Assembly (NCBI GenBank): GCA_963823655.1
Contig: CAWGMK010000010.1
Coordinates: forward strand, 52,311 to 116,310
Direction of reading: 5' to 3'
Origin: an uncultured Bacillota bacterium
Lineage (GTDB): Bacteria; Bacillota; DTU025; MWDF01
Length of the DNA: 64,000 nt
This document shows positions 17,139 to 57,189 of this stretch, piece after piece. The notes beneath the pieces are model-generated. The model saw only the letters and a list, made by a program, of their open reading frames with translations. It ran no database searches and was not told the origin of the DNA. The position numbers and the translations under genes are program-made. Every line of letters starts with the position of its first letter. Positions within the stretch are counted from its first letter, which is position 1.

Positions 17139-17204
17139 CGATGCAGAGCGTTGGCTCAGGTGGCACAGCCCGGCACCGGGGCCGCGACTCGGACTGATCG
17201 CTTG

Positions 17205-17289
17205 GTGCGGCGGGTGGGATTCGAACCCACACGTCCTTTCGGACAATGGATTTTGAGGCCATCGCGTCAGCCGTTGCGCCACCGCCGCA
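17205..17289 (-). tRNA. tRNA-Leu (anticodon CAA), type II with a long variable arm; the CCA is encoded.
   Basis: Minus-strand read: GCGGCGG-TG-GCG-CAACGGCTGA-CGC-G-ATGGC-CTCAAAA-TCCAT-TGTCCGAAAGGACGT-GTGGG-TTCGAAT-CCCAC-CCGCCGC-A-CCA. It has a 7-bp acceptor stem with one G·U pair, a GTTCGAATC T-loop and a variable-arm stem GTCC/GGAC. Anticodon-stem pair 31·39 is a C·U mismatch. Confidence 0.8.
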
Positions 17290-30339: not shown

Positions 30340-32332
30340 TGGCAACCCTCCCGCGACGGCAGACACCTCATCGACAGCAGGCCGCCGCGGCCCTGGTGAT
30401 GGTCGTCGTCATGCTCTTCGGCAGCTGGGCGTTCGCGTCGCCGCCGTGGCCCAGGACGCTGTCGCCGGTGCCGCACGTCGTCGGCCGCCGGAAGGGGCGG
30501 CCATCGACCTGATCCAGGGCGAACGGTCTCCGGGTGGGGTCCCGCTGGCAGCTGCCTACGACGCCGAACGTGCCCGCTGCACGGTCATCAGCCCGGATCC
30601 GGTGGCCGGCACGATCGTCGAGCCGGCGCCACGCCGTCAGCTATGTGCTCAGCGCCGGGCCGCCGCCGCAGTCACGGCAGCCGGCGCCGGAGCCCTGCCC
30701 GACCCCAAAGCCCTCCCCGACCCCAAAGCCGTCGCCCACGCCCAAGCCGCCGCCCACCCCAAAGCCGACGCCCTGGCCGACGCCTCCGGGGGTCAAGGGC
30801 GTGGACGTCTCCCATTGGAACGGCGCGCCCGACTTCGGGACGCTGCGCGGAAACGGCATGGAGTTCGTGTTCTCGAAGGCGTCACAGGGCACGTGGCTCC
30901 AGGACGAGACCTTCCTGCGTAACACGCAGGCGGCCCGCGCGGCCGGCATGCTGCCGGGCGCCTACCACTTCTTCGACTACAACAAGGGCGGCAAGGAGCA
31001 GGCCAGACACTTCCTGGCCACGGTGCAGAACTCGACTGGCCTCGGCGGACTGCTACCCCTCGTCGTGGACGTGGAGACGCTCAAGTCGCTCGGAACGCCG
31101 AACCCCGCCCTGGCGCGCACCCGCCTGCACACGCTCCTGGACGAGCTCTACCGACAGACGGGCCGCTACCCGATGATCTACACGAGTCGCGAGATGTGGA
31201 AGCGCGTCGTCGGCGAGCCGGATGACTTCGGCGCCTATCCGCTGTGGGTGGCCTGCTGGAAGTGCGACAACATCCACCTGCCGCGCGGCTGGTCGGGCTG
31301 GGATTTCTGGCAGGTCGGCCCGTTCCGTTCCCGGGCATGTCGAACCTGGACGGCAACACCTACCGCTCGAGTGCGCAGAAGCTGCGCAAGGAAGTGCAGC
31401 GCGACATGCGCCTCAACAAGGGCGCCGAGTGGTCGGCGAGCACGACCGCCCTGGCCGACCTGTCGCGCTACGACGGCACGGACGTGCGGGTCGCCCTGGA
31501 GGACGGCGGCTTCGGCCCGTGGGCGCCATTTCAGCACCCCTTCCCGGTGCAGCTCGGCGATCAGCAGGGACCCCGCAGCGTCCTGCTGCAGCTGCGCAGC
31601 TACCGCGGCGTCCCGTCGCCGGTCATCAGCGACGCCATCCAGCTCGACTCCGTGCCACCGAAGGTCAAGGGGCCGTGGGTCTCGCTGGTCTCCGGCGGGC
31701 AGCTCAAGCCGAGACGCAGACCGGGTGCCGGTGACGGCCAAGATCGAGGCCACTGACGCCACGTCCGGCCTCGAATCGTCGCGCGTCGAGGCCAGCCTGC
31801 GGGCCGCGTCGGGCCAGTCGCACGCGCCAGGCCCAGGCGGCAGAGCTCGCCATGAACATCGACCGCACGGGCTGCACGATCACCGGCATCGCTACCGACA
31901 AGGTCGGCCTCACTGGCAGCTCGTCGCTCGGCCCGCGCATCCAGCTTCGGGACGTGCGCGAGCGCTCCCGTGACTTCAGCTTCAAGGGTGACTGGAAGAC
32001 GGCCAGGATGAACGAGCGCGATCGGCCGGACGCTCACGCAGGCCTCCGAGCGCGGGGCCCGGATGCGGCTGCCGTTCGAGGGCGCGCAGTACGCCATCGT
32101 GACGCGACGCGGACCATCCGGCGGCCAGCTCGACGTCCTCGTCGATGGCAAGCGGGTCACGACCCTCGACCTCTACGCGAAGAAGTCGGACAGCCGGCGC
32201 ATCGTCCACGTCGGCAGCGTGCCCAGGCGCAAGCACGTCCTGGAGCTGCGCCCGACCGGGACGAGCGACCCGGCCTCGACGGGCACGACCGTCTGGCTGG
32301 ACGCGGTCCTGGTGCTCGACCGGCAGAAGTAG
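30340..32332 (+). CDS. Secreted glycoside hydrolase family 25 (lysozyme/muramidase) with an N-terminal domain, a Pro/Thr-rich linker and a C-terminal extension.
   Basis: Signal-like ...AAAALVMVVVMLFGSWAFASP. Linker PTPKPSPTPKPSPTPKPPPTPKPTPWPTPP. GH25 domain: GVKGVDVSHWNGAPDFGTLRGNGMEFVFSKASQGTWLQDETFLRNTQAARAAGMLPGAYHFFDY...LPLVVDVE...YPMIYTSREMW...WDFWQ. C-terminal frames (31244-32332) end ...VWLDAVLVLDRQK*. There are frameshifts near 30520 and 31320. Confidence 0.6.
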
Positions 32333-34395: not shown

Positions 34396-35440
34396 CTAGA
34401 TGCGCAGCGCGCCGGCGCGGGTGACGATGGCGGCATCGCGGCCCAGGAGCGCCGCGGGCGGCAGCTCCACGCTCGGCGCGACGCCCGAATCGAGCCGGTC
34501 GGCCTCCTCGATGAAGAGCGGCACGAGGCCCGGGTCGAACTGCTGGCCGGCGTGCTTGCGCAGCTCGTCGAAGGCCTCGTCCACGGAGCGGGCGGCGCGG
34601 TAGGGGCGGCCGCGCACGATGGCGTCGAAGGCGTCGGCGAGGGCCACGATGCGGGCACCCAGGGGGATCTGCTCGCCCTTCAGGCCATCCGGGTAGCCGC
34701 TGCCGTCCCAGCGCTCGTGGTGGTGGCGGATGATGGGCGTGAAGTCGCGCGACATGCGCAGCGGGTCGCAGATGCGCTCCCCGATCTCGGGGTGCTCGCG
34801 CATGATGCGGAACTCCTCGTCCGTGAGCGGGCCTGGCTTGTGGAGGACGTGCTCCGCGATGCCGATCTTGCCGATGTCGTGGAGCAGCGCGCCGTAGGCG
34901 ACGCCCTCCAGCTCGCCGTCGCGCAGGCCGACGTAGGCGGCCAGGCGGGCCGAGCGGTAGGCCAGGTAGCGGCAGTGGTCCTTGAGCCCGAGGTCCTTGG
35001 CCTCGACCGCGTTGGCCAGGGCGACCACGATGTCGTGGGCCTGCTCCATGCGCCGGATGACCTCGCGCGTCCGATACGAGCTGCGCAGGCGAGCCAGGAG
35101 CTCGACCTGCTGGAAGGGCTTGGTGACGAAGTCGTCGGCGCCCGCGTCCAGGGCGGCCACCATGTCCGAGGTGGACGTGTGGGCCGTGAGCACGATGATG
35201 GGCAGCGTCACGGTGCGGTGGTCGGCCCGCAGCCGCCGGCAGATCTCCAGCCCGTCCATGCCAGGCAGGGTGAGGTCCAGGATGACCATGTCCGGCTGGT
35301 GCTCGGCCACGGCGCGCAGCCCGTTGACGCCATCCGCCACGGCGATGACGCTGTAGCCGGCGTCCTCCAGGATGCGGCCCAGGACACGCCTGACGGCCGC
35401 GTCATCCTCGATGACTGCCACGCGGGGACGCACCGTGCCC
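34396..35440 (-). CDS. Response regulator with REC and HD-GYP domains (putative c-di-GMP phosphodiesterase).
   Basis: REC: RVAVIEDDAAVRRVLGRILEDAGYSVIAVADGVNGLRAVAEHQPDMVILDLTLPGMDGLEICRRLR. HD-GYP: ALLHDIGKIGI...IIRHHHERWDGSGYPDGLKGEQIPLGARIVALADAFDA. The C-terminal part is intact. The start is probably GTG near 35430. Confidence 0.75.
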
Positions 35441-35641
35441 CGGTGGGCGGTGTGGTCCAAGAGTCTCCCTCCACAGCGCCACGACGACTTGACGCGGGTC
35501 GGGCTGGAGTATACCCGCCGGTGCGTTCTGTCACCGGCTTCAGGCGCGGTGTCATCGGCTGTCCCGATGGCCGCGGTCGCCTCGGCACGGGTGGTGACGC
35601 GACGCACGGGCCTTCTGCGATCAGGTGGTAGCGTGACGACC

Positions 35642-36540
35642 ATGAGCGGTCGCGATCTCGGTCGTGCGTTCCGGGCGCACCCGCTGGCGGTCGCGGCGAG
35701 GCTGGCCATGGCGCTGTGCATGGCGCTGGCGGTGCTGACCGTCGGGTCCGTGTCGCTCTGTCGCGGTGCCGGGGTCGCTGGCCGGGCGGCGCGCCAGCGG
35801 TCGCCCTGGCGCAGGGCAAGCCCCCGCTCGACGATCCGGCCGTCCCGGTGCGCATCACCGTGCCCGCCCTCGGCATCGACCTGCCGGTGGTCTCGAGCGA
35901 GCGCACCGTGCCCGGCAACGTGCGCGACTACCCGCTCTGTGACGTGGCCCAGTACTGGGACATCTACGACCTGCCCGGTGCCCCGGGCACGACCTGGATC
36001 TACGCCCATGCCCAGCCGGGCATGTTCCTGCCGCTGCTGCTGAACGCGGAGGCCACGTCGGGCGAGGGACTGCTGGGTCAGATGGTGACGCTGCAGCTGA
36101 AGGACGGACGCCTGCTGCGCTACCGCATCGTGGAGGTCAAGCAGCACGCCTACAACCGCCGCCTCGCGCTGCGCGCCCGCCCCAGCCAGCAGCGACTCAT
36201 CCTGCAGACGAGCGAGGGGCCACCGGGCACCATCCCCAAGCTGCAGGTGGCCGCCAACCTCATCGGCGCCACGTGGACGGATGAGCCAGCCGCCCAAGGC
36301 CCAGCCACGCGCCTGCTGGCAGCCACGGCCGAAGCCGACCGACCGGGCGGCAAGGCGGGGCGCACGGGCGCCGCGAAGCCGACACCGCAGCCGTCGCCCA
36401 CGACCATGGCGGCCGGTGGCACCACCGACGCAGCCTCCCTCGCCCTGGGTGGCGGCGCGGTCCTCATCGGCGCCACGCTGGTAGCGATCTACATGGTCAG
36501 ACGGCCCGCTCCCGACCGACGGCAACCACCCCGCCGATAG
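35642..36540 (+). CDS. Sortase-fold membrane protein. The TLxTC catalytic Cys position reads Ser, and it has a C-terminal QPSPTT-TM-RR tail.
   Basis: N-terminal TM MSGRDLGRAFRAHPLAVAARLAMALCMALAVLTVGSV (35372..36043 frame). Sortase-like core: PVRITVPALGIDLPVVSSE...GAPGTTWIYAHAQPGMFLPLL...RLLRYRIVEVKQHAY...QRLILQTSEGPPG, where LILQTS replaces the expected TLITC. C-terminal ...KPTPQPSPTTMAAGGTTDAASLALGGGAVLIGATLVAIYMVRRPAPDRRQPPRR*. There is a frameshift near 35720. Confidence 0.45.
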
Positions 36541-36588
36541 AGCGGCCTGGGAGGACAGGCGGCAGCGACGATCGCCGCGGTTCGATCG

Positions 36589-36990
36589 TTATCGCCCACG
36601 ACGTCTTCGGTGCCAGGGCTCGAGTCGATAGGTCCGAATCAGGAACTGGTCGAAGAATGGGACAGTGAAATCCGCCAAGCCCAAGGCAGGCGAGTAGATC
36701 AGGCCTTTTTCGATCAGGCTCCCCCTGACAGTGCCGACCTCAGCGCTCGAACCGAGCCCCAGCTTCGATGCGATGGCGCCCGACCGTCGGGACTCCGGGG
36801 CGAGTTCAGCCATGGCTCGCAGGTATGAGATCTCGCGAGGTTGTGTCACGCGTGCCATGCGCCCCTTGAAGAACGACTCATCGAGCTCAGCCTCAAGCAG
36901 TGGAACCGTGGCGGCAACGTCGTCGGTGCTGATCGGCGAATGGTCCGCCACGTTCCAGACCCTGCTCCCGAACTCCTGGATGATGTCCAT
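36589..36990 (-). CDS. Hypothetical protein with a C-terminal winged-helix DNA-binding motif; local GC is lower (~58%).
   Basis: MDIIQEFGSRVWNVADHSPISTDDVAATVPLLEAELDESFFKGRMARVTQPREISYLRAMAELAPESRRSGAIASKLGLGSSAEVGTVRGSLIEKGLIYSP. The ORF could start upstream at 37056. Confidence 0.4.
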   Translation of the reverse strand: MDIIQEFGSRVWNVADHSPISTDDVAATVPLLEAELDESFFKGRMARVTQPREISYLRAMAELAPESRRSGAIASKLGLGSSAEVGTVRGSLIEKGLIYSPALGLADFTVPFFDQFLIRTYRLEPWHRRRRGR

Positions 36991-37131
36991 CGAGGCCTCT
37001 TTGCTGTGTTCACTGGTGTTTACAACCACCGTGTAAACCAAGATGAACGCTGTCAAGGATGCTGGACAGATCGACGGCCGGATCCTTCGCGGGATCCGGC
37101 CGTCGCTTGTGGTGGCGGAGGTTGGCGTGGG

Positions 37132-40100
37132 CTACGTCCTGGCCAGTCGATGCCGACGGATGAGCCATGCGCCGCTGACGATCATCATGGCCGCGACGAG
37201 GACGATGAAGGCCCAGCCCGTCGGGCCCCCAAGGAATCCACCTGACGTCGACGCGGCCTCGGTCGCGAGGAGTGTGTCCGTGGACGGCTGCTTGTCGCCG
37301 TCACCTGCGCCACCGCCGCTTCCGCTCTCGTCATCGCCAGCGCCGCCATCCCGGACGGGGACGATGCGGATGAAGGCCTGGGCAGTCGCGGAGATGACCG
37401 TGACCGCTGTATCGCGGAACTCTCCAGCCAGCAGGGCCTCCTCGTCGTCAGTGACCGTGACGGTCACGGTGTTCACGTGACGGTCGCCAGCCTGCCCGGT
37501 GACGAAGGCCGTGAACTGGCATTCGTATGTCGCGCCGGCGGCGATGAGGTCGCCGACCGAGTTCGCGCACGTGTTGTTCGTGAGATCCCGATTGCGTGGG
37601 TCATCCAGGTCGCCCAGCAGGTCGTCGCTCAGGGCCACGATGCCGAGGCTCTCGGGAACGAGGTTCTGGATGGTGATGGTGAAGGTCACGTCGCCACCCG
37701 GCTCTTCCAGCCTGGTCACGGACGGGGTCTTGGTGACCGCGATGGCAGGCACGATATCCGTGATCGTCACCGTCGCGTCGTCAGACGCGACGGCCTGGCG
37801 ACCCTCGAGCGTGGCGGCCCTGGCCGTGACCACGTCGGTCTCGACCGTCCCGCCGACCCCACCCACGAATGCGGTGAAGGCGCAGGCGTAGGTCGCTCCA
37901 GGCGCCAGTGACTGCGGCACGGCGCACGTCCCCTTGCCGTTCACGTCGCCGTGGACGTTGTCCACCAGGCTCGTGAGCGAGACGGCCACATTGCCGGTGT
38001 TGGTGACGCTGACGGCGAAAGAGACGTCCCCGCCCGGCTCGGGGACGGAGCCCGGAGTGGCGGTCTTGGTGACGGAGATCGTGGGGGTCGAGCGGATCTT
38101 GAACGTGGCCGTGGCCGCGTTGTCAGCCGGATCCGGGTCAGTGGTCTGGCTCGAGACGGTGGCGCTGTTGGAGACGGTCGTCAGGTCGAGGTAGGTGCCG
38201 GGTACGACGGTGGCGTTGACCGTGATGGTGGCGTCGACGCCGACCGGGTGGCTGGCGATCGTGCAGGTGAGCGTGTTACCGACGATCGGCGCGCAGGTGT
38301 ATGGCCCGTCATCGACGACGGTGACGCCCTGGAGCTGCGCTGGGAACGTGTCACTGAGGGTGGCGTCGGCTGCGTCGGAGGGACCGGCGTTGGAGACGCT
38401 CAGGGTGTAGGTGACGCTGCCGCCCGAGACGGTCTCGGCCGGGGTGACGCTCTTGGTGACCGAGAGGTCGGCGACCGCTCCCACCTCCACCGACGCCGTG
38501 TCGCTGTTGGGCAGGGCGTCGGGGACCTGTGGGGTGCGCGCCGCCACCGTGGCCGTGTTGGGGATCGACCGCGCCGTCAGGGAGGCCCACCGGCACGACC
38601 GCGGTCAAGGTGACCGTGGCCGTCGAGCCGGCCGCCATCGTGGCGGCGTCGCAGGTCAGCACGAACTGGGTGCCGGGGGGCGCCAGCGTGCAGCCGAGCG
38701 ACGGCGGCGTCACCGTGCCAAGCGTGACCTGGGTGAAGACAGCCGGGAACGAGTCGGTCACCACGACCCCGCTGGCATCGCTTGGGCCCGCGTTGGTCAC
38801 CGTCAGCGTGTAGGTGATCGTCTGGCCGGCGGCGACAGCCACCGGGTCCGGGTTGCCATCCTGCCCCTGCACCTGTTTGACGATGCCGAGGTCGGCCTGG
38901 GCGACCAGCGGGGTGTCGGCGCAGGCGACGTTGTTCGATGAGTCGCTGATCGCGGCTGCGGCCGTCAGCGTGGGGGCGACCTGACGGCACGTTGGATCGG
39001 GCGGTGCTGGATCGTCGGGGTGATCGAGGACCGCGAGGTTGGGGTAGCCGGCTCCCGGGTCGGGGGCCGTGCTCGCGTCGGCACGAGCCCGCAGCACCAC
39101 CGTCGCCGTGGCACCGGCGGGCAGCGCCGCCGCCGGGATGGTGCAGGTGATGGTCTGGCCACTCGGCGCGGCGCAGGTCACGCTGGCCGTCGATGCCGTC
39201 GTGTCGAGCGGCGTAGGTGCGAACGAGAAGCCGGTCGGCAAGGTGTCGGTCACGGTGGCATCGCCAACCACCCCGCTCGTGCCGAGGTTCTCAACCGTGA
39301 TCGTGTACGGGAAGGCCGCTCCACCGGCCACGGCCGGTGTGGTGTCCGTGCCGTCGCGGAAGACCTTGGTCAGAGCCAGGTCGAACGTCTTCAGGTAGGC
39401 GACATCGGCGTTGTCGGTCTGGACGGGGTCGCTGGTGAGACCCGACACCGTGGCGCTGTTCGGGAACGGCGCCGTCGCAGTGACCGGGTCCGCCGCCGTA
39501 GCGGTGAACACGATCGAGCCCGCCGACCCGACCGCCAGCGTGGCGGCCCGGCAGGTGACCGGGACATCGAGCGGCTCGCCGGCCGCGGCCGTCCCGCCGC
39601 CGGCCCGGTCACAGGTCAACCCGGCCGGTGCGCTGACGAAGAGCACGGGCGTCACCAGGTCGCTGGCCAGCGGGTCGATGACGGTCACGCTCTGCGCCAC
39701 CGACGGCCCGTTGTTCGTCACCCGCAGGGTGAACGTCACGGGCTGAGCGGGAATGATCCCTTCCGCCGTGGCGGGCGTCTGGGCGTCGTTCGGCGTCGTG
39801 CCGCCCGGGCCGGTCGCCAGCTTCGGTGACCGAGAGGTCGGCGGATGTGGCCACGGTGGTCGTGGTGGTCGCGCTGTCGTTGGCAGCGTTCGGATCGCTG
39901 GTCGCCGCGGAGACGGTGGCCGTGTTGCTGATGACCGTGCCGGCGGCGACACTCGCCCCGACCTGGACGATGAGCGTGAAGGTCTGGGTGGCACCGGCGG
40001 CCAGGCTGGCGATCGTGCAGGTGACGGTGCCGTTGCCCCCCACGGCGGGCGTCGTGCAGCTGAAGCCTGCGGGCGCGGTGAGCGAGACGAAGGTCGTGCC

Positions 40101-42759
40101 CGCGGGCAGGGTGTCGGTCAGGCTCACGCTCTGGGCGGCGTTGGGACCGGCGTTGGCGACGGTGATGGTGTAGGTGAGGTTCGCGCCGGCGATGACCGGG
40201 TCGGGACTGTCGGTCTTGGTGATCGAGAGGTCGGCGGAGGTGGCCACGGTGGTGGTGTCGGTGGCGGTGTTGTTGGCCGGGGTCGGGTCGGTGGTCGAGC
40301 TCGAGACGGTGGCCGTGTTGGCCTGAGGGCCCGCCGGGGTCGAGGCTGGCACCGTGTAGGTGACGACCAGCGTCGTGGTGGCACCGGCCAGGATGGGCCC
40401 GAGGGCACAGTCGAAGCTCGGACCGCCTCCGACGTCGGTGCAGGCGGCGGGCAGCGAGGTGCGCGTGAAACCGGCCGGCCAGGTGTCGGAGAGGCTCACC
40501 GCTTGGGCATTCGAAGGTCCGTTATTGATGACGGTGATGGTGTAGGTGCGCGTGGCGCCGTCACCGGCGGTCACGGTGGCGACTCCGTCGCTCTTGGTGA
40601 CGGAGAGGTCGGCGGACGTGGCCACGGTATTGGTGTCGGTGGCGGTGTTGTTCGACGCGTTCGGGTCGCTGGTCGAGCTCGAGACGGTGGCCGTGTTGGC
40701 CTGAGGGCCCGCCGGGGTCGAGGCTGGCACCGTGTAGGTGACGACCAGCGTCGTGGTGGCACCGGCCAGGATGGGCCCGAGGGCACAGTCGAAGCTCGGA
40801 CCGCCTCCGACGTCGGTGCAGGCCGCGGGCAGCGAGGTGCGCGTGAAACCGGCCGGCCAGGTGTCGGAGAGGCTCACGCCGGTCGCCGTGCTGGGCCCCG
40901 CGTTGCGCACCGTGATGGTGAAGGTGCGGGTCAGGCCGTCACCGGCGGTCACGGTCGTGACCCCGTCGCTCTTGGTGACCGAGAGGTCGGCGGATGTGGC
41001 CACGGTGGTCGTGGTGGTCGCGCTGTCGTTGGCAGCGTTCGGATCGCTGGTCGCCGCGGAGACGGTGGCCGTGTTGCTGATGACCGTGCCGGCGGCGACA
41101 CTCGCCCCGACCTGGACGATGAGCGTGAAGGTCTGGGTGGCACCGGCGGCCAGGCTGGCGATCGTGCAGGTGACGGTGCCGTTGCCCCCCACGGCGGGCG
41201 TCGTGCAGCTGAAGCCTGCGGGCGCGGCGAGCGAGACGAAGGTCGTGCCCGCGGGCAGGGTGTCGGTCAGGCTCACGCTCTGGGCGGCGTTGGGACCGGC
41301 GTTGGCGACGGTGATGGTGTAGGTGAGGTTCGCGCCGGCGATGACCGGGTCGGGACTGTCGGTCTTGGTGACCGAGAGGTCGGCGCGGAGCGCCGGATCC
41401 AACAGCAGGGTCACAGGCGACGCCGTGCACGACGAGCCGTTGCCCGTGCAGGTGCGTGTGTCGGAGGATTGTGGGACCGAGCTGTAACCCGGAGCTGATG
41501 CCGTCAACGTGACCGTCGCCGGACCGCGCCCGGGGTACGTGACGCTGACCGAGAAGCCCCCGGTGGCGTTGGTGCTGGTCCCCCCACCCGTATACGACAC
41601 GGTGGGAGAGTTGTTGCAGCCCGTGCACGTGGCCGTGACGGTTGCGCCGGCGATGAGTGGGGTGCCTGTCGGATAGGTTGCGACCGAGCCGGTGATCGTG
41701 ACATTCGATTGCGGCGTGATGATGAGGTCCTCGGCGGCCATCTTGCTGGCGCTGACAGACATGTCATCCGCCGGTCCGACCTGCGCCGTCGGCTGACCGA
41801 CTGCGTCCGTGGTCGACTCCGCGGCCGCACCCATGTCAGCCGCCGGCGCTTCGTGGGGAGTCGCGTCGAACACGCTCTTGCCGGCCGTGGCACCGCCTTG
41901 TTCGCGCTGTGCGACGGCGTCACTCGCAGCCGCTGAACGTGCGGCACTGATGGTCAACTCAGCCTTGGCAGTCAACTTGTCGAGCGTGGCTACGACCTCG
42001 GTGGCGCCGATGACGGCCACGGCGGCGAGGCGCACGTCGTTGGCGTCTGGCGCTTCGAACGAGGCGACACCCTCATCCCTGACCGACCAACGGACGTCCG
42101 TGGCTGGCGAGCATGCGTCGGACTGGCCGGGCTCCTGGTCGGACCCGGGTCCGGCGCCATCGCCGGACGTGGTGCAGAGCCAGGCCGAGAGCTTGGCCAC
42201 ATCACCCACGACCAGGTCGAGCTTGCGCGGCTGGGAGTCGATGACGAGCTTGCGCTCGGGCTCGGCGGGGGCGACGTCGGGCGCAGGCTCGACTGGAGCC
42301 TGCTCGGCCTTGGGCTCGGCGGCCGGCTCCCGGTCGGGCGCCGTGTCGGGCTTCTGTTCCTTATCGGCCTTCGGTCCCTGTGCCCTGGGCTCGGGCGCCG
42401 GTTCCTGCGTCGTGGGCTCGGGCGCGGCCTCCTGGGCGGGCGCAGCCTGGGGCTCGGGCTCGGACGTTGGGCGGATCGGCGGGAGCCGGTGCGGGCTCCG
42501 AAGCCTGGACCTCCGCGGCAGGGGCGGGCTCCTCGGCGGCCACCTCGGGCTCGGGTGCCGGCGATGGCTCGGCAGCGACAGGCTGGGCAGAGGCGTCCGC
42601 CTCCGCATCCTGGGCGATGACCAGCGCCGGGGTCAGCAACAGCGACGACGTCAGCAGGATGACCTGCAGGACGGCCAGCAGGGCGGCCAGGCGGTGGACG
42701 CGCGGGGACACGGAGGTGCTCGGAGCCAAATCGCTTCTCCCGTGGAAACCAGCGGTCAT
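37132..42759 (-). CDS. Giant cell-surface protein A (~1870 aa): signal peptide, small N-terminal domain, Pro/Glu/Lys/Ala-rich linker, many DUF11-type Ig-like repeats and a C-terminal QPSTDTL-TM-RR anchor tail.
   Basis: Signal ...RVHRLAALLAVLQVILLTSSLLLTPALVIAQD. N-domain KLVIDSQPRKLDLVVGDVAKLSAWLCT. DUF11 units ADLSVTKTDSPDPVIAGANLTYTITVANAGPNAAQSVSLTDTLPAGTTFVSL...; one ~130-aa unit is duplicated nearly identically. Tail ...GDGDKQPSTDTLLATEAASTSGGFLGGPTGWAFIVLVAAMMIVSGAWLIRRHRLART*. There are several frameshifts. Confidence 0.7.
39810..40200. repeat. Internal near-identical direct repeat within giant protein A (copy 1); it pairs with 40960-41350.
   Basis: The six-frame ORFs 39826..40173 and 40738..41322 share the identical string MTERSADVATVVVVVALSLAAFGSLVAAETVAVLLMTVPAATLAPTWTMSVKVWVAPAARLAIVQVTVPLPPTAGVVQLKPAGA.SETKVVPAGRVSVRLTLWAALGPALATVMV. 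Confidence 0.75.
40960..41350. repeat. Internal near-identical direct repeat within giant protein A (copy 2).
   Basis: See copy 1. A second shorter pair is 40124..40408 versus 40571..40786 (identical MPSGPSWPVPPRRWSSPTRCQPRPRRALRPTRPPSRAR in six-frame). Confidence 0.75.
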
Positions 42760-43016
42760 CGACGCTGGTGGATGATGACAGACGGAGCGAACCGTACCAA
42801 GAAAGCCCCGCACGGTTCGCTGCTGGCGCGAGACGATACTCGAGCCACGGCGCTTTCCGCACCGGGCCTGATAGTCCACCGGAGCCGTAGTACTTTCCCG
42901 AGCCCGCGGTCCGCGACGCCTCAGGCCCTCCACCGAGGCCCCGAAAAGCCGACGGCCGGGTCCCTGGTGGGAGCCCGGCCGTCGGGAGTGTCGCGATGGA
43001 TGCTGGCTAGATCTCG

Positions 43017-46000
43017 GAGGTGCGGACCCTCCGGATGACCCAGCCCGCGGACAGGATGACCGTGGCCGACATCAGGATCGATGAGGATCCAGTTCATCGG
43101 GCTGTCGAGCGGACCGCTCGCGGCCGACACGGTGTCGGTCGGGATGAGCGTGTCCGTGGGAGGCTGGCCACCGCCGCCACCGCCACCACCAGCACCGCCG
43201 ATCCAACCGATCTCCTCATCATCCTCGGCGCAGACCCTGTCGGACTGGCTCTGGGAGGGACCGGCCACGGCACAGGCCGTGAAAGTATTGACGTGCGGGA
43301 TGGTGTCCTGCGGCGGATCGGCGACCACTTCCGGCTCGACGAAGAACGTCGCTTCGAACTGGCACGAGGCACCCGCCGGCAGCGTCACGCCGACCTGGCA
43401 GTCCGCATCACCCTGGAGGGCTCCGAAGTCGGAGTCGACGAGTGACACGATGCTGACCGGGACCTTCGACGTGTTGGTCACGGTGAAGGTGAAGGTGACG
43501 TCCTCACCCTCGATGTCGGCGATGGGCGTGTCGGCCGTCTTCACGACCGCCAGCTTGATGGCCGGGATGTCGAGGTCGTCGCAGACCTCAGGGGTCTGGT
43601 CGGAGTCGGCGCAGGCGGTGTTCAGGACATCGCCCTTGTCGAGGTCGGCCTGGGTGATGGTGTGGCTGCCGGTGCAGGTGATGCTGGCACCGGGCGCCAG
43701 GGATGCCACCGGGACGGTCGGGCTGCAGACGAAGTTGTCGAGCTTCACCGTGAGCAGCTTGTCGGTCACGACCACATTGGTAAGCGGGTAGTTGCCGATG
43801 TTGGTGGCCTTCACGGTGTACGTGATGACGTCGCCGACCGCGTCGTACGTCTGCACGTTGGAGGTCTTGACGATGGAGAGCTCGGACTCGTAGACGCGCT
43901 CGTCATCGCAGACCGGCTTGGATGTCTGCGCGCTGATGGCGCAGGCCGTATTGGGGATGGACTTGTTGGCGTTGTCCACGTCAGCCTGGGTGACGGTATA
44001 CGTCGCCTTGCAGACGATGGCCTTGCCGGGTGCCAGGCTGGCCACCGGGAGGGTGACGGCCGCACCGTCAACGGTGCAGGCCCAGCTGGCAAGTTGCGGG
44101 ATGAGCGGGTCGCTGACGCCCACGTTGGTGAGCGTGGCGGCGCCGACATTGGTGGTCGTCACCGTGTAGGTGATGAGGTCACCGGCCTTCGAGTAGAACG
44201 CCGGGCTGGCCGACTTCACCACGCTGAGCTTGGCGAACAGGTTCGTGAAGGTGCACTTCACGGTCTCGCCCGCGTCGAGCTTGAAGGTTGCCTTGCGATC
44301 GACCAGGCTGCCCGAGCTTGGGTTCTGGCTCTGGCCGTCATCGCAGACGATCGAGTCGAGGACCCAGTCTGGGGTCACAGCTTCAGTCGAGGTGTACGTG
44401 CCGGGCACGAGGTTGCCGACCACGATCTGGCCGTTGTCGGCGATGGAGCCAGCAGCGTCACCGGTGAAGGTGAACGTCTGAGGGGAGTCAGCGGGGTTGG
44501 TCTGCTTCTCGACGATGATCGTGCCGCGCTGGGTGTTGGTGAAGACGCAGGTGACGGTCTCACCGGGATCGAGATCGATCTCGTCGGCGGCCTCGGTGCC
44601 CTCGATGGAGCTCGTGCAGACCGTGCTGGTCAGATCCCAGCCGGCAGGCACGGTCTCGGAGACCGAGTAGGTGCCGGGGGTCAGGAACCCGCTGTCGTGC
44701 GGGGTCGTGGCATCGGCGAGCTGGAAGTCAGCGCCCCAGCTCGGGTCGAAGGTGAAGAGCTGCGGTGAGCCGCTCGGGTCCGTGACCTTGTCGACGATGA
44801 TCGTGCCGCGCTGCGTATTGGTGAAGACGCAGGTGACGGTTTCACCGGCCGCGATGACCGCCTGCACGGTCGTGTCACCGGCGTCGAAGTCGGCGTCGCC
44901 CACGAAGCCTGCGCCGGTGCCGGTGCCGATCAGATGGCGGCCCCATTGGCGGTGCAGACGATGTTGGTGAGCGTGTAGCCGGGCTTCGCCGTCTCCGTCA
45001 CGTACTTGGTCCCGAGTTCGAGACCGGTGAAGGGGAACGGGGCGTTGGCCGTCGGGTTGGTGACCGAGGTGTCGCGGTTGAACGGCGAGAGGGCCGAGCC
45101 TTCGACCGTGTAGGCGAAGGTCGCGGGGGCACCCACGGTGGTCTTCTCGATGTCCAGGGAGGCGTTCTGGGTGTTGGTGAAGACGCAGGTCGGGGTGTTC
45201 CCGGCCGCGATGACCGCCTGCACGGTCGTGTCACCGGCGTCGAAGTCGGCGTCGCCCACGAAGCCTGCGCCGGTGCCGGTGCCGATCGAGATGGCGGCCC
45301 CATTGGCGGTGCAGACGATGTTGGTGAGCGTGTAGCCGGGCTTCGCCGTCTCCGTCACGTACTTGGTCCCGAGTTCGAGACCGGTGAAGGGGAACGGGGC
45401 GTTGGCCGTCGGGTTGGTGACCGAGGTGTCGCGGTTGAACGGCGAGAGGGCCGAGCCTTCGACCGTGTAGGCGAAGGTCGCGGGGGCACCCACGGTGGTC
45501 TTCTCGATGTCCAGGGAGGCGTTCTGGGTGTTGGTGAAGACGCAGGTCGGGGTGTTCCCGGCCGCGATGACCGCCTGCACGGTCGTGTCACCGGCGTCGA
45601 AGTCGGCGTCGCCCACGAAGCCTGCGCCGGTGCCGGTGCCGATCGAGATGGCGGCCCCATTGGCGGTGCAGACGATGTTGGTGAGCGTGTAGCCGGGCTT
45701 CGCCGTCTCCGTCACGTACTTGGTCCCGAGTTCGAGACCGGTGAAGGGGAACGGGGCGTTGGCCGTCGGGTTGGTGACCGAGGTGTCGCGGTTGAACGGC
45801 GAGAGGGCCGAGCCTTCGACCGTGTAGGCGAAGGTCGCGGGGGCACCCACGGTGGTCTTCTCGATGTCCAGGGAGGCGTTCTGGGTGTTGGTGAAGACGC
45901 AGGTCGGGGTGTTCCCGGCCGCGATGACCGCCTGCACGGTCGTGTCACCGGCGTCGAAGTCGGCGTCGCCCACGAAGCCTGCGCCGGTGCCGGTGCCGAT

Positions 46001-48780
46001 CGAGATGGCGGCCCCATTGGCGGTGCAGACGATGTTGGTGAGCGTGTAGCCGGGCTTCGCCGTCTCCGTCACGTACTTGGTCCCGAGTTCGAGACCGGTG
46101 AAGGGGAACGGGGCGTTGGCCGTCGGGTTGGTGACCGAGGTGTCGCGGTTGAACGGCGAGAGGGCCGAGCCTTCGACCGTGTAGGCGAAGGTCGCGGGGG
46201 CACCCACGGTGGTCTTCTCGATGTCCAGGGAGGCGTTCTGGGTGTTGGTGAAGACGCAGGTCGGGGTGTTCCCGGCCGCGATGACCGCCTGCACGGTCGT
46301 GTCACCGGCGTCGAAGTCGGCGTCGCCCACGAAGCCTGCGCCGGTGCCGGTGCCGATCGAGATGGCGGCCCCATTGGCGGTGCAGACGATGTTGGTGAGC
46401 GTGTAGCCGGGCTTCGCCGTCTCCGTCACGTACTTGGTCCCGAGTTCGAGACCGGTGAAGGGGAACGGGGCGTTGGCCGTCGGGTTGGTGACCGAGGTGT
46501 CGCGGTTGAACGGCGACGAGGGCCGAGCCTTCGACCGTGTAGGCGAAGGTCGCGGGGGCACCCACGGTGGTCTTCTCGATGTCCAGGGAGGCGTTCTGGG
46601 TGTTGCCGAAGTCGTTGTTGAGATAGGTCGGCGTCGTCGCGCTTACGGTCAGAGGACCGTAGTAGACCGTGGCAGGCGCCGTCTGGGTCCAGCCGTTCTG
46701 GTTGACTTCGTACACGTAGTAGGGGTCGTTCGCGGCGGTCGCCTTGATCGCATCCGGCGTGACCGAGAAGTAGTAGAAGCCAACGGGATCGATGGCACCG
46801 TTGCCATCCAGGTCGTCGGTCGTGCCGTTCGCGGTCTGGACACAGCCAAGGTTGCCGTTGTTCGGATTGCTGTCGCTGTCGAGACAGATCGTCCAATTGG
46901 CGAGGCCCGGCTCCCCGGCGTCCTTCGAGCCGTTCCCGTTCAGGTCGTGGAACTTCACACCGCTGATCTCGCCCTGGATGATCGCGTCCGGCGCGAGCTG
47001 GATGGATGTTGCGCCCGACCCGCCGATGTCGACGGTCGTCTGGAGCGAGCCGCCTGTCCAGGCACCAGCGCCGTTCGTCTTGCCTGCGCCCTGGTTGGGC
47101 ACCTCGCCCGGCTTGGCGATGTACAGGCCGTAGTAGATCGCGGCGTAGCCGTTGCTGGTGGTCGTCCCCGTGTAGGTGAACGTGATGGTGACGTGCCCAT
47201 CCTTGGTGCCTGAGCCCGTGTATGTGACGGCGCTGACGCCGGTGATGTTCGCGTCTACCGTGAAGAACGAACCCGCATGCATCCCGCCGTTATTGGTGAA
47301 CGAGCCGTCCTCCGTCGGCGTGATGGCAGGCGTGGCCCAGTCGAAGACGGTGGGCTGCCGGCTCAGGTTGTACTGCGTCATGTACGCGAAGCCACCGGCA
47401 TCGGTGTTCTGCTGGTAGTAGTTGTACGTGACGTTGAACGAATAGGACTGCCCGTTCACGAGCTGCGCGTTGTTGGACGCCCCGTACATGAAGACGTGGG
47501 GGATGACCTCGCCTTCGAAGTAGTTGGACTTGTTGGCGTTGAGGATGTTGTTGTTCCAGTCGCCGGGCAGCGGCTCGTCCGACCAGTGCGCGTAGGGCTT
47601 GGAGAAGCTGCCGGCCGCAGCGGGCTCGATGATCGGCTCCAGGGCAACCTTGGCAGCAGCCGAGGAAACGAGCGGCTCCTCGACCACCGGCGCCTCTTCG
47701 ACGACGGGCTCCGGCTCGACGACCGGAGCCTCCTCGACCAGCGGCGCCACCACCGGCTCGACGACCTGGGCGTCTTCGACCAGCGGCTCGACGATGGCGT
47801 CGTTGCCCTTGCCGTTGTCTTCCTTGTCGCTGTCCTTGGGCTCCTCGGCAGGCGTCTCCTCGACGATCGGAACGTCTTCGACGACCGGCTCCTCGGCAGG
47901 CGTCGCCTCGACGACCGGGGCCTCTTCGACGACTGGCTCCTCGGCAGGCGTCTCCTCGACGACCGGGGCGTCGTTGCCCTTGCCGTTGTCCTCGCCCTTG
48001 GGCTCGTCCTGGGCCGGCTTGACGCCCTGGCCCTCGTTCGTCGCCCTTGGGCTCGTCCTGGGCCTGCTTGGGCTCGTCCTGGGCCTGCTTGTCGCTCAGG
48101 CCCGCGCTGTCGGTCTTATCGTTCCTGGGTTCGTCGGCAGCGGTCTTGTCGCCCTTGGGCTCGTCCTGCCTGGACTGCTCGTCAGCCTTGGAGCCGTCGT
48201 TCTTGGGCTCGTCCTGGGCCTGCTTCGGCTCGTCCTGGGCCTGCTGCTCCTCGGCCTGGGGCTGCGCTTCGACAGCAGCCGGTGGCTCCGGCGCGGGCGC
48301 CTCCTTGACGACGAGGCTGGCGGCATAGCGAAGATCACCCAGGGTGGCAACGATCTTGCCTTCACCCGCGGCGACCGCGCTCAGCTTGGTGCGCTTGCCG
48401 GTCTCGTCCTCTTCGATGGCCAGGCTGGCCAGCGGCGCCGCCGGCATCATTCAGGGACCACTCCGCCTGGACGGGCTGACAGCCGACGGCCGCCGGCTCC
48501 TGGTCGGCGCGCGAGCGGCAAGCGTGACGCCTGGGTCACACGTCCATGCGCTGACCTTCTGGGACTCGCCCACCGTCAGCTTCAGCGGATCGGGATGCAC
48601 GTACAGGTTGAGCGCGGGAGCCGCCGGCTGGGCAGATTCCGCCGCTGCCTGCTCGTCCTGCGCGATGACCAGCGCCGGTGTCAGCACCAGCGATGAGATC
48701 AGCAGGAAGGCCTGCAAGACGGCGGTGAGCGCCACCGGGCCGCGCAGTCGGCGCGATTCGGACCTCGACATCGATACCAC
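43017..48780 (-). CDS. Giant cell-surface protein B (~1920 aa), a paralogue of A: signal peptide, N-domain, Glu/Lys/Gln-rich linker, SdrD-B-like domain, five tandem 119-aa repeats, prealbumin-fold (SpaA/Cna-B-like) domains, a poly-Gly run and a C-terminal QPPTDTL-TM-RR tail.
   Basis: Signal MSRSESRRLRGPVALTAVLQAFLLISSLVLTPALVIAQD. N-domain LNLYVHPDPLKLTVGESQKVSAWTCDPGVT. SdrD-B-like ISGVKFHDLNGNGSKDAGEPGLANWTICLD...NGTTDDLDGNGAIDPVGFYYF. Repeats NASLDIEKTTVGAPATFAYTVEGSALSPFNRDTSVTNPTANAPFPFTGLELGTKYVTETAKPGYTLTNIVCTANGAAISIGTGTGAGFVGDADFDAGDTTVQAVIAAGNTPTCVFTNTQ. Prealbumin-like GTIIVDKVTDPSGSPQLFTFDPSWGADFQL...GTYSVSETVPAGWDLTSTVC...GETVTCVFTNTQ. Tail ...GGGGGGGGQPPTDTLIPTDTVSAASGPLDSPMNW, then after a 1-nt indel SSILMSATVILSAGWVIRRVRTSEI* with the stop at 43017. 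Confidence 0.7.
44930..46561. repeat. Tandem array of ~4.6 near-perfect 357-bp (119-codon) repeats inside giant protein B.
   Basis: Identical six-frame ORFs recur at 44998, 45355, 45712 and 46069 (period 357 bp) on the coding strand and at 45138, 45495, 45852 and 46209 on the opposite strand. Confidence 0.9.
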
Positions 48781-49176
48781 TCCTCTGTGTGTGGTGGCCC
48801 CCGAAACGTCCCAGGCAGTGGCCTGAGGGATGAATGCGCCCCATCGAGGTCACCCCGATCGAGCCGGGCGTCGGGATCGTGCTCGGTACGGACCGTCCGC
48901 CGTACGAAAGTCTCAGCCCTGAACGGGCGGATGGCAAGGACCGATAGTACCTCTGGGGGCACATGCGGTGCTCCCCGGCACCAAGAGTTGTGTGACCAAT
49001 GGCCCTTGACGGCCCCAGACCCCCTCACGTCGGACCTCGACCGCACACCCTCGCATCCAACCTCGCCGTGAAGTGCACGCAGTCCACCAGAGCGCAGTAC
49101 CGCTGGAACGGGTACCCCCGGGCTACCACCGGTGCACGAGCCATTCGGCCCCCAGGGCGTAGCATCGGGCGCTCGA

Positions 49177-50283
49177 ATGCGCGCCCTCTCTGCGGCCGTC
49201 GCCGCGCTTCTGCTGACCACGCTGGCGGCCAGCCTCCCCACGCAAGCCACGGCGACCGACTACCCCGCGCGCGATGCCGGCTACCACTCGTACCCGGAGA
49301 TGGTCGAGCACATCCGGCAGGTGGCGGCCGCGCACCCGGACATCGTGCGGCTCTTCTCCATCGGCCAGAGCTTCGAGGGCCGCGAGCTCTGGGCGGCCGA
49401 GGTGTCCGACCAGCCGGGCACCGACGAGGGCGAGCCGGAGGTCCTCTTCGACGGCCTGCACCACGCGCGCGAGCATCTCAGCGCGGAGATGACCATCGCC
49501 ATCCTGGACCTGCTGGTCGGCCAGCTACGGCCAGGACACGCAGCTGGGCCGGCGGGTCACCCGGCTGGTGGACGAGCGGCGCACCTGGATCGTCTTCATG
49601 GTCAACCCCGACGGCCTGGCCTACGACCTGGGCGGCTCCCCTATCGCTCCTGGCGCAAGAACCGCCAGCCGACGCCTGGGTCAGCTGGCGCCGACGGCGG
49701 ACATCGGCACCGACCTCAATCGCAACTACGGCTACCGGTTCGGCTGCTGCGGCGCCTCGTCCGGCGACCCCGCCAGCCCCTACTACCGCGGCCCGCGGGC
49801 CTGGTCGGCGCCGGAGACGCGGGCCATGCGCGACTTCGTGCTGAGCCGCGTCGTGGACGGGCGGCAGCGCATCCGGACGCACATCACGTTCCACACCGCG
49901 GGCGAGATGGTGCTCTGGCCCTACAGCTACACGCGCGCGGACCGGCCGCCCGACATGCGCGCCATCGACCTGCGCGCCTTCCGGGCCATGGGCCGGGCCA
50001 TGGCGGCCACCAACGGCTACACGCGCCATGCAGTCGAGCGCCATGTACCCCACCGACGGCGACCAGATCGACTGGATGTACGGCGCGCCAGGGCATCTTC
50101 TCGTTCACCTTCGAGCTGTACCCCAAGGGCGGCGGCACGCCGCGGCACCACTACCCGCCCGACGAGATCATCGGCCGGGAGACCCGGCGCAACCGCGAGG
50201 CCGTGCTGTACCTCATGGAGCAGGCGGCCTGTCCGTACGCGGTGCTCGGGGCGCGCGCTGCGGAACGCCACTGTACGCCCTGA
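49177..50283 (+). CDS. Secreted M14-family zinc carboxypeptidase.
   Basis: Signal MRALSAAVAALLLTTLAASLPTQATA. YHSYPEMVEHIRQVAAAHPDIVRLFSIGQSFEGRELWAAEVSD...PEVLFDGLHHAREHLSAEMTIAILDLLV (zinc-ligand region). Second frame: RRTWIVFMVNPDGLAYDL...GTDLNRNYGYRFG...HITFHTAGEMVLWPYSYT. C-terminal IFSFTFELYPKGG...NREAVLYLMEQAACPYAV. There are at least three frameshifts. Confidence 0.7.
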   Translation: MRALSAAVAALLLTTLAASLPTQATATDYPARDAGYHSYPEMVEHIRQVAAAHPDIVRLFSIGQSFEGRELWAAEVSDQPGTDEGEPEVLFDGLHHAREHLSAEMTIAILDLLVGQLRPGHAAGPAGHPAGGRAAHLDRLHGQPRRPGLRPGRLPYRSWRKNRQPTPGSAGADGGHRHRPQSQLRLPVRLLRRLVRRPRQPLLPRPAGLVGAGDAGHARLRAEPRRGRAAAHPDAHHVPHRGRDGALALQLHARGPAARHARHRPARLPGHGPGHGGHQRLHAPCSRAPCTPPTATRSTGCTARQGIFSFTFELYPKGGGTPRHHYPPDEIIGRETRRNREAVLYLMEQAACPYAVLGARAAERHCTP

Positions 50284-50382
50284 GGCGCGGTCCGAAGCCG
50301 GCGCGGTCGGGTCGCTCGCATCGCCGGAGTCGTCTCCCGACCAGTGACGCGGCCCGTGTCGCCGCCCTGGCCGGTGACGCGG

Positions 50383-56650: not shown

Positions 56651-57188
56651 CGGCATCGCCCACGGCGCCGCCGTTGTCGATGGCCACGTCCACGAGCTCG
56701 TGGAGCCCGGCGGCCCCGGGTCCCGCGCCGAGCCGGACGACGCGTGGCGCAGGCTGGTGATGGCGATGGTCCGCACCCCGGCCTCGCTCGCCGCGCGCGC
56801 CATCTCGCGGCTGACCGCGTTGCTGCCCGAGTTGGACGCGATGAGCAGCACATCACCGGGCGCCATGGCGTGGTCCGCGGCCAGCGCAGCGGCGAGCCCG
56901 GGCAGCCGCTCCAGGGCCGTGCTGAGCGCCGTGCTCCCGTGAAGCGTCAGGCCCTCGAACAGGATGGCCGGACCCGGACCAGGCCGCCGGCGCGGTGGAA
57001 CAGCTCCTCCCGCGATGATGGCGAGTGCCCGAACCGAAGCTGTGGATGGTCCCGCCGGCGGCGAGCGCATCGGCCATCAGCGAAGCCGCCGCGTCAATTC
57101 GCGGCCACTCCTCGGTGCCGAGGCGGGCGACGAGCTCCTCCGCGATCCGGAGGTAGCGCTGGCCGGCGGACGCACGCTCGCTCGTCAT
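56560..57188 (-). CDS. SIS (sugar isomerase) domain protein, GmhA-like.
   Basis: MTSERASAGQRYLRIAEELVARLGTEEWPRIDAAASLMADALAAGGTIHSFGSG. Then ALERLPGLAAALAADHAMAPGDVLLIASNSGSNAVSREMARAASEAGVRTIAITSL. Then [40 protein letters not shown] in shifted frames. The ATG (rc of cat at 57186-57188) abuts the GC-content break at 57189. Confidence 0.6.
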
Positions 57189-57189
57189 A

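Follow-up and report, generated by a model that had tools for sequence, protein, structure and literature searches.

How are very large surface proteins fixed in the envelope when the sortase-like protein encoded beside them has no cysteine where a sortase should have its nucleophile? The question is raised by a stretch of 64,000 nucleotides of contig CAWGMK010000010.1 (assembly GCA_963823655.1), hereafter called the window, in which the genes of two giant surface proteins, Giant A and Giant B, adjoin a gene for a protein with a sortase fold and a serine in the catalytic column. On balance, and by no wide measure, we favor the view that these genes form a lineage-specific sortase and cell-wall-sorting-signal system of Limnocylindria-type Chloroflexota, in which the Ser-type enzyme would process the giants. 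It is a divergent sortase/sorting-signal system and not a new kind of machinery.

The C-terminal tail of the giants and its sortase-like neighbor

Both giants end in the same layout, namely QP[SP]TDTL, a spacer, a tryptophan, a transmembrane (TM) helix, and IRRxR. In more distant loci, an example of the giant C terminus found beside the sortase-like gene is ...TPKPTKPPTDMLLVTDTLGGDAGSGFGDPIGWAVWVLLSALLILSTGFVIRRERLAEVRNRR, and 16 diverse tails gave the consensus QPPTDMLLxTD-x(12-18)-GGPxxWAIWVLLSALLILSxGWVIRRQRLAEV, with invariant columns for T, D, L, W, I, and R. From TD to the conserved Trp at the head of the helix, the Gly/Asp-rich spacer measures 20 to 25 residues. The motif, which the initial annotation of the window had written as QP[SP]xT(D)T, is better rendered as [QKL][PK][PS]TD[MT]L. 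The same annotation had attributed the tail to three proteins. This holds for both giants but not for the sortase-fold protein, whose upstream QPSPTT is not conserved in its homologues, in contrast to D..L.LGxGAVLLGAT..AVYLVRRP. The C terminus of the latter protein remained below threshold against PVV_CTERM (19.4 bits; cut-off, 27) and is a generic membrane anchor without a sorting motif, as in class C sortases.

We trained a hidden Markov model (HMM) on six tails and searched it against 17,456 six-frame open reading frames (ORFs). Tails were recovered in about 25 related loci with E values of 1e-15 to 1e-30, and no unrelated ORF scored below 1e-5. Judged by these scores, the giant tail lies far above chance. 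Its overall conservation exceeds that of the preceding 150 residues only modestly (53% versus 43%); the core columns reach at least 90%, and the TM helix (WAIWVLLSALLILS) is unusually well conserved. A database search with the tail profile returned 18 short fragments only, owing to a word-index limit. Furthermore, the tail sits on carriers of differing domain content: Giant A and Giant B differ in architecture, L086 has the tail on a PT/SpaA_2/SpaA_3 protein, and in L087 it occurs at a VWA/SpaA_3 locus. The tail is thus a portable, specific conserved module.

The order of motif, hydrophobic segment, and basic tail at the extreme C terminus of a signal-peptide protein is that of LPXTG-type substrates, and Pro2 (or Pro3) and Thr4 of the LPXTG-class signal are kept. 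An LPXTG-type pentapeptide (LPXTG, LAXTG, NPQTN, and the like) was, however, not detected by TIGR01167 or related models. The Giant A tail scored 13.6 bits against TIGR01167 LPXTG_anchor (cut-off, 15.9), in a match covering the TM and basic part only, and no NCBIfam sorting-domain or CTERM model matched the tails at cut-off.

A GTDB-wide scan yielded 78 loci, a sample that is biased since the search patterns included the QTS motif. The sortase-like genes were sorted by the presence of a C-terminal TM helix, and tails were then sought nearby. In the C-terminally anchored subfamily, which includes the window gene, the end of a tail-bearing gene lay 87 to 1,440 bp away in 26 of 26 distinct loci with readable flanks, usually in convergent arrangement. 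These include two independent JGI contigs from a metagenome search with a narrower tail alignment (2 loci, both paired). Among the other relatives, that is, Ser-type proteins without the C-terminal TM helix and Cys-type proteins, a tail was present within 10 kb in none of 55 loci. The pairing was perfect across sortase-like identities of 49 to 100%. The initial annotation had proposed a dedicated enzyme-plus-substrate sorting module, to be checked by the co-occurrence of a Ser-type sortase-fold partner with tail-bearing proteins; motif, TM helix, basic stop-transfer, and adjacent partner were indeed paired in every C-anchored locus examined. We consider it fairly likely that the Ser-type sortase and the giants are related as enzyme and substrate.

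One locus departs from the usual arrangement. In L045, the end of the tail-bearing ORF (9699-9869, plus strand) precedes the sortase-like gene by 87 bp on the same strand, which could reflect a rearrangement or a mis-assembly. The sortase-like gene of this locus is split over three frames.

Several points weigh against an enzyme-substrate module. The distance of the motif from the TM helix, 20 to 25 residues, exceeds that of classical signals (about 10 residues at most), position 1 of the motif is not Leu, and its position 5 is Asp instead of Gly. The tails of L086 and L087 have no sortase-like gene within 8 kb, and the Ser-type subfamily without C-terminal TM helix, described below, has no tail-bearing neighbor or visible substrate nearby. 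The region dnaE ... REC-HD ... M14 ... ABC transporter is syntenic in these genomes, and adjacency is weaker evidence than the counts suggest because a syntenic block reflects shared ancestry in part. In addition, the window copies of the giants and of the enzyme are not intact ORFs, and replacement of the catalytic Cys in Staphylococcus aureus SrtA abolishes or greatly reduces its activity.

Some of these points would suit genes that are neighbors by coincidence, with the tail processed by another enzyme (rhomboid, signal-peptidase-like, or exosortase-like) or by none, the sortase homologue serving other substrates, and the adjacency being inherited synteny. The extended synteny takes in unrelated genes (dnaE, ADH, and M14), and both the tails that lack a sortase-like gene close by and the paralogous subfamily that lacks a tail fit such a view. 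However, the association of the C-anchored subfamily with the tail holds at all identities and in the inverted L045, and the tail motif derives from LPxT[SD]TL, a sortase-type signal. Moreover, no other candidate sorting enzyme was present among the window genes examined, for which the annotation is not exhaustive. We consider coincidence improbable.

Serine in the catalytic column of the sortase-like protein

The sortase-like protein consists of an N-terminal TM anchor, a sortase beta-barrel, a Pro/Thr linker, and a C-terminal TM helix followed by VRRP. Its match to the Pfam Sortase family (PF04203) is marginal (27.8 bits; gathering score, 26.6), all NCBIfam sortase class models failed, and a profile of the Ser-type family retrieved no sortase from the PDB at E < 0.1. 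The eight-stranded sortase beta-barrel is present in the AlphaFold2 (AF2) model, in which His127 ends beta4, Ser195 ends beta7, and Lys204 opens beta8, the positions of His120, Cys184, and Arg197 of SrtA. The catalytic positions read His/Ser/Lys in place of His/Cys/Arg.

This assignment draws on an alignment with Cys-type relatives from Dormibacterota, Actinomycetes, and Solibacter loci, which share the motif YAHAQPGMF around the histidine. LILQTSEGP...PKLQVAA of the Ser-type proteins stands opposite LLLVTCTTY...PRIVAVA and LVLYTCTSW...PKVVAVA, and further Cys relatives have LTLLTCT. S. aureus SrtA has LTLITCDDY...KRKIFVA at these positions; the key inference rests on the Cys-type relatives.

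A set of 5.8 billion proteins contained 365 homologues, all from Chloroflexota or Limnocylindrales metagenome-assembled genomes (MAGs) where named, and a profile search of 1.84 billion cluster representatives gave 425 matches at E <= 1e-3 and 257 at E <= 1e-10. Conservation was counted over 267 members, the denominators being the members aligned per column. The nucleophile column holds Ser in 245 of 252 members and Cys in 1, the histidine column holds His in 251 of 256, and Thr194 is conserved in 250; in the beta8 column, Lys204 is found in 223 members and Arg in 15. The AGC codon of the serine is identical in the window, L009, and L001, which are three independent assemblies. The claim that Ser occupies the Cys position of TLxTC is thereby confirmed. 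A base-calling error is ruled out by the same two results, and the serine is a fixed character of the family.

The protein had also been called Cys-less, which is right for the nucleophile column but not for the rest of the protein, since two further cysteines, C75 (YPLC, 256 of 256) and C200 (PRxC, 226 of 230; window numbering), are invariant. Neither occurs in the Cys-type relatives, where the C-terminal extension is missing as well, and the two therefore most likely form a disulfide. Cys75 (YPLCDVAQY) is an unlikely candidate for a relocated nucleophile. It co-occurs with the second invariant Cys, which is part of the C-terminal extension, and in the sister family described below it is the canonical column that switches between Ser and Cys. 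The idea of a Ser-Lys dyad created by the change from Arg to Lys is weakened too, since Lys accompanies Cys in the Cys-type relatives L077 and L079 and Ser goes with Arg in the L076 family.

A further Ser-type subfamily (L029-L072; e.g., L036:8640-9356 and L046:9737-10552) ends right after PRxC and thus has no C-terminal TM helix. Its genes usually face, in convergent orientation, a gene for a corA-type Mg transporter, and some of its members (P0065, P0070, P0074, and P0081) have two sortase-like domains in tandem. Both Ser-type subfamilies were found in one MAG (L025 and L027) and are therefore paralogues.

Ser and Cys alternate in an unclassified sister family of Chloroflexota (L076 and L090-L092). 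In L076, the sortase (LTLQTSTSY...PRF) is encoded directly downstream of a small secreted protein ending LPRTSAIED...TM...RR. A search with this sortase gave 566 proteins at E <= 1e-5, many of them auto-annotated as "LPXTG-site transpeptidase." In an alignment of 121 sequences (the query and the best 120 of the 566 matches), the nucleophile column holds Ser in 109 and Cys in 12, and the surrounding motif, EQLTLQT[S/C]TSYYPTAPRF, is otherwise identical. The sister family thus shares with the window family the QT[S/C] context and the predominance of Ser, as well as a T-[SD]-T-L core in the tail followed by spacer, TM helix, and RR. It differs in that it keeps the Arg on beta8, has neither the extra Cys pair nor the C-terminal TM helix, and adjoins a single small Big_1 substrate. 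Identity between the two families is about 33%.

An operon of Big_1 protein, sortase, and DUF4012 protein was found in three contexts, two of Ser type, on Mb-scale contigs, and one of Cys type. The substrate tails read LPNTSTLPGE... (Ser type, L090), LPRTDTLPAS... (Ser type, L091), and LPNTSTLPPS... (Cys type, L092), each followed by spacer, helix, and RR. Ser-type and Cys-type sister enzymes therefore seem to serve the same sorting signal, as expected if Ser is a working nucleophile. LPRTDTL of L091 and the QPSTDTL/QPPTDTL of the window have P-x-T-D-T-L in common. Because the sister tails LPRTDTL and LPNTSTL bridge the window motif to LPXTG-like signals, this motif is a drifted LPXTG-class signal derived from LPxT[SD]TL. 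The initial annotation had set the system apart from LPXTG/sortase, a separation that does not stand, given a bona fide sortase-fold homologue as the enzyme and a tail of this descent. The L090 operon sits within a sugar-modification/glycosyltransferase cluster, which hints that the sister sortase is linked to an envelope polysaccharide.

The protein could also be a pseudo-sortase, that is, an inert membrane-tethered receptor, chaperone, or scaffold, with the giants held by their own TM helix and the PTDML, W, and TM residues conserved for protein contacts. The defining Cys is absent and Arg is mostly Lys, the protein has a second TM anchor, and the TM helix of the giants is conserved as expected for helix-helix packing. 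Dead enzymes, however, normally lose the conservation of their catalytic site, and the near invariance of His, Thr-Ser, and Lys/Arg over 250 representatives argues against one. Furthermore, Ser and Cys replace each other at exactly this column in the sister family while substrate and operon stay the same, which marks the column as that of a working nucleophile. A pseudo-sortase is, in our opinion, unlikely. We put catalysis by a Ser nucleophile in this protein at about an even chance.

If the Ser-type protein does process the giants, these would be exported by Sec via their AQD-type signal peptide, and the TM helix and RRxR would act as a stop-transfer that keeps the giant membrane-bound after export. 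The enzyme, tethered by its N- and C-terminal TM helices, would then recognize the xPxTD[MT]L motif, and the long spacer of the tail may match the long Pro/Thr tethers of the enzyme. As in sortases, Ser195, aided by His127 and/or Lys204, would attack the peptide bond after Thr to give an acyl-enzyme ester. This intermediate could be resolved by an envelope amine, leading to covalent anchoring, or by water, leading to release.

The giants, their neighborhood, and sequence quality

The coding frames of the window were assigned by third-position GC, because most long ORFs are spurious in DNA of about 72% G+C, and the peptides quoted in the initial annotation, all of which were found in their places, were then located on these frames. 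Both giants map to the minus strand and the sortase-fold gene to the plus strand; third-position GC and peptide mapping rule out plus-strand ORFs as the giants. The features are compiled in the table.

Table. Coordinates of the sorting module, its conserved neighbors, and the sister operons (window positions unless a locus is given)
Feature	Position	Strand	Description
REC + HD-GYP response regulator	34396..35559	-	Pfam Response_reg E 5e-33, HD_5 E 1e-37; divergent from sortase-like gene
Sortase-fold gene	35642..36540	+	Ser-type, C-terminally anchored subfamily; window copy broken by indels
His codon	36007..36009	+	YAHAQPGMF, end of strand beta4; corresponds to SrtA His120
Ser codon (AGC)	36211..36213	+	LILQTSEGP, end of strand beta7; catalytic Cys column (TLxTC) by alignment
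C-terminal TM anchor + RR of sortase-like protein	36439..36507	+	LxLGxGAVLLGATxxAVYLVRRP, conserved in homologues
Giant A	37132..42756	-	about 1,870 codons; at least 3 frame changes; frame map
Giant A sorting tail	37135..37305	-	KQPSTDTLLATE, spacer, GW, AFIVLVAAMMIVSGAWLI, RRHRLART, stop; tail HMM E 2e-30
Giant B	43007..48771	-	about 1,920 codons; at least 4 frame changes; frame map
Giant B sorting tail	43010..43181	-	GQPPTDTLIPTDT, spacer, NW, ILMILMSATVILSAGWVI, RRVRTSEI, stop; 1-nt insertion at about 43080
Giant B tandem array	44811-46605	-	period 357 bp, 5 copies, 99% matches; each copy a 119-aa SpaA_4 domain
M14 zinc carboxypeptidase	49132..50347	+	E 3e-17 and 1e-25 for Pfam Peptidase_M14, split over two frames
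Sister operon	L090:4418-7651; L091:4333-7600; L092:3447-5461; L076:8905-12447		small Big_1 protein with LP[NR]T[SD] tail, sortase, DUF4012

Giant A is composed of a signal peptide, a small N-domain, a Pro/Glu/Lys linker, at least nine CLIPPER(DUF11)/DUF7507 Ig-like domains, and the sorting tail, CLIPPER being the newer Pfam label for DUF11 (DUF11 E values of 9e-97, 2e-38, and 6e-30 on three pieces). Its start, at the 42756 end, was inferred from MTAGFHGRS...LTPALVIAQD. Giant B begins with the same type of signal peptide and N-domain, followed by a Lys/Glu/Pro linker and one domain without a Pfam match. Its C-terminal part comprises five 99%-identical SpaA_4 repeats, SpaA_2/SpaA_4, three DUF7507 domains, and the sorting tail (SpaA_4, E 2.5e-53; DUF7507, E 1.4e-52). 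The giants had been taken for paralogues exported by one route, and paralogy is confirmed by the near-identical signal peptide (...LTPALVIAQD), the small N-domain (P.KL.L.VG...K.SAW.C), and the charged linker that they have in common. Each SpaA_4 repeat of Giant B carries an E-box-like YVTETAKPGY motif, and Giant A contains a second tandem array (40209-41076, a 378-bp unit in 2.3 copies). Repeat copy numbers taken from a long-read assembly may be unreliable.

DUF11/CLIPPER- and SpaA-type domains are building blocks of Gram-positive pilins and fibrillar adhesins. The giants are fibrillar adhesin-like proteins, predicted to be exported by Sec and made of Ig-like domains that are typically isopeptide-bonded; the CLIPPER/DUF11 domains have been surveyed as intramolecular-isopeptide-bond domains (bioRxiv 10.1101/2025.04.25.650565). 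The carriers, with SpaA-type and CLIPPER domains, are classic sortase-substrate architectures, which favors processing of the giants by a sortase.

The frame changes in these genes can be compared with L009, a long-read MAG ("MFD," Microflora-Danica-style) that is 97.7% identical to the window over 34.0 to 44.8 kb. Over these roughly 10.8 kb, 76 indel events were counted, 60 of them single-base, or about 0.7% overall. Seven fall inside the 0.9 kb of the sortase-like gene (L009:9992-10891), a density of about 7 per kb, and one more lies just upstream of its ATG. In the tail of Giant B, the window carries a single additional G at about 43080, where L009 reads through; the 1-nt correction by which the TM-RR tail had originally been recovered is thus justified. 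Only 15 of the 76 indels lie in homopolymers of at least three bases, an unusual profile that could mean error or, possibly, real decay.

The numerous indels of the sortase-like gene, the minimum of three to four frame changes per giant, and the low share of homopolymers would also be seen if the window giants and the sortase-like gene were pseudogenes and the Ser a sequencing error. This we hold to be very improbable. Independent assemblies agree on the Ser codon, the residue is a family-wide invariant, intact orthologues exist in L009 (enzyme and Giant B tail) and in L003, L005, and L011 (giants), and housekeeping genes of the window and of sister assemblies, such as dnaE, are hit as well. 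The split housekeeping genes are not the same in L004 and L005, two sister assemblies of one species, and codon bias and high third-position GC persist across every shift. Because of the intact L009 genes, the differing splits, and the persisting codon bias, the frameshifts most likely stem from indels of the long-read assembly and not from decay of the genes.

As the initial annotation had stated, a REC-HD-GYP regulator and an M14 carboxypeptidase flank the cluster, both with Pfam matches. The regulator is a conserved neighbor whose position is unchanged in L001-L006. The carboxypeptidase gene, conserved beyond the giants, is frameshifted near 49.5 kb, and its orthologue in L005 is intact (533 aa). 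A scan of the 590-bp convergent gap for terminators and promoters found none. Upstream of the regulator, a PlsC-type acyltransferase gene (PF01553; 33.9-34.4 kb, minus strand) belongs to the conserved block in syntenic loci, and a GH25 muramidase-domain protein is encoded at 30513-31970 (plus strand). Both products are envelope related and might have a functional tie to the module. A tRNA-Leu(CAA) at 17203-17288 (minus strand) was the sole Rfam/ARAGORN match across the window.

A third giant surface-protein gene (56964-64000, plus strand; over 2,300 codons, with a minimum of 2 frame changes) has many DUF7507/CLIPPER_2 repeats and runs past the end of the window, so that its C-terminal tail is out of view. 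This part is only 52 to 56% G+C compared to about 72% for the rest, which could indicate a compositional island of acquired DNA or a repeat-driven bias.

Relation to known sorting systems

The class E/F housekeeping sortases (actinobacterial type, LAXTG/LPXTG) resemble the window enzyme in their N-terminal anchor, the His on beta4, and the Thr before the nucleophile, and, as in the giants, the signal of their substrates runs from a motif through a hydrophobic helix to a basic tail. The nearest relatives of Cys type, from Dormibacterota and Actinomycetes, have YAHAQPGMF and adjoin substrates with LPFTG, FPNTA, LPNTS, or LPATS, then W, TM helix, and RR. In contrast to class E/F, the window family has Ser in the nucleophile column, mostly Lys for Arg, two extra invariant cysteines, and a C-terminal extension, and its substrates have xPxTD[MT]L with a spacer of 20 to 25 residues. 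The class F model (NCBIfam NF033748) gave 18.9 bits for the window enzyme, far from the cut-off of 166.

Class C pilus-specific sortases likewise have a C-terminal TM anchor besides the N-terminal one, with one dedicated enzyme per locus that adjoins very large substrates of SpaA-fold or isopeptide-bonded Ig-like domains. The window enzyme differs in that Ser takes the place of Cys, it did not match the NCBIfam class C model at E <= 0.1, and the host is read as a soil member of the Chloroflexota, not as a Firmicute or an Actinobacterium. A lid motif or pilin motif was not seen, though no search was aimed at either. By its fold and its His, the window enzyme falls within the sortase superfamily, of which it lacks the catalytic Cys and Arg; its lineage is closest to the actinobacterial-type housekeeping sortases, with an arrangement in the manner of class C.

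The tripartite order of motif, TM helix, and basic cluster is also found in PEP-CTERM/exosortase, PGF-CTERM/archaeosortase, GlyGly-CTERM/rhombosortase, and MYXO-CTERM/myxosortase systems. These use a polytopic intramembrane enzyme, whereas the partner in the window has a soluble-domain sortase fold, and of the window genes examined, none codes for a polytopic CTERM-type sorting enzyme.

By definition and in the MEROPS classification (C60), sortases are cysteine transpeptidases. A family for the Ser-type enzymes or for the tail was found in neither Pfam nor NCBIfam, and the searched literature, which covers few subscription journals, gave no description of natural Ser or Cys-less sortases. Taking the two families together, we advance, with a confidence that falls somewhat short of even, the proposal that Chloroflexota hold natural serine sortases: at least two sortase-fold families, amounting to roughly a thousand sequence clusters, would have exchanged Cys for Ser and would still process LPxT-derived signals. 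The window subfamily would then be a dedicated, doubly anchored serine sortase for giant isopeptide-bonded adhesins, which it would attach or release by way of a new xPxTD[MT]L signal.

If this is true, the definition of sortases would have to change, for a large natural clade would have an invariant Ser as its nucleophile, with cognate substrates and with a sister family in which Ser and Cys interchange. After the PA-clan proteases, it would be the second clear example of one fold switching its nucleophile. Protein engineering would gain ligases that are insensitive to oxidation and recognize a new sequence (xPxTD[MT]L or LPxT[SD]TL). For the abundant uncultured Limnocylindria of soil, the module provides a first handle on how very large adhesins are displayed, with concrete peptides and point mutants supplied.

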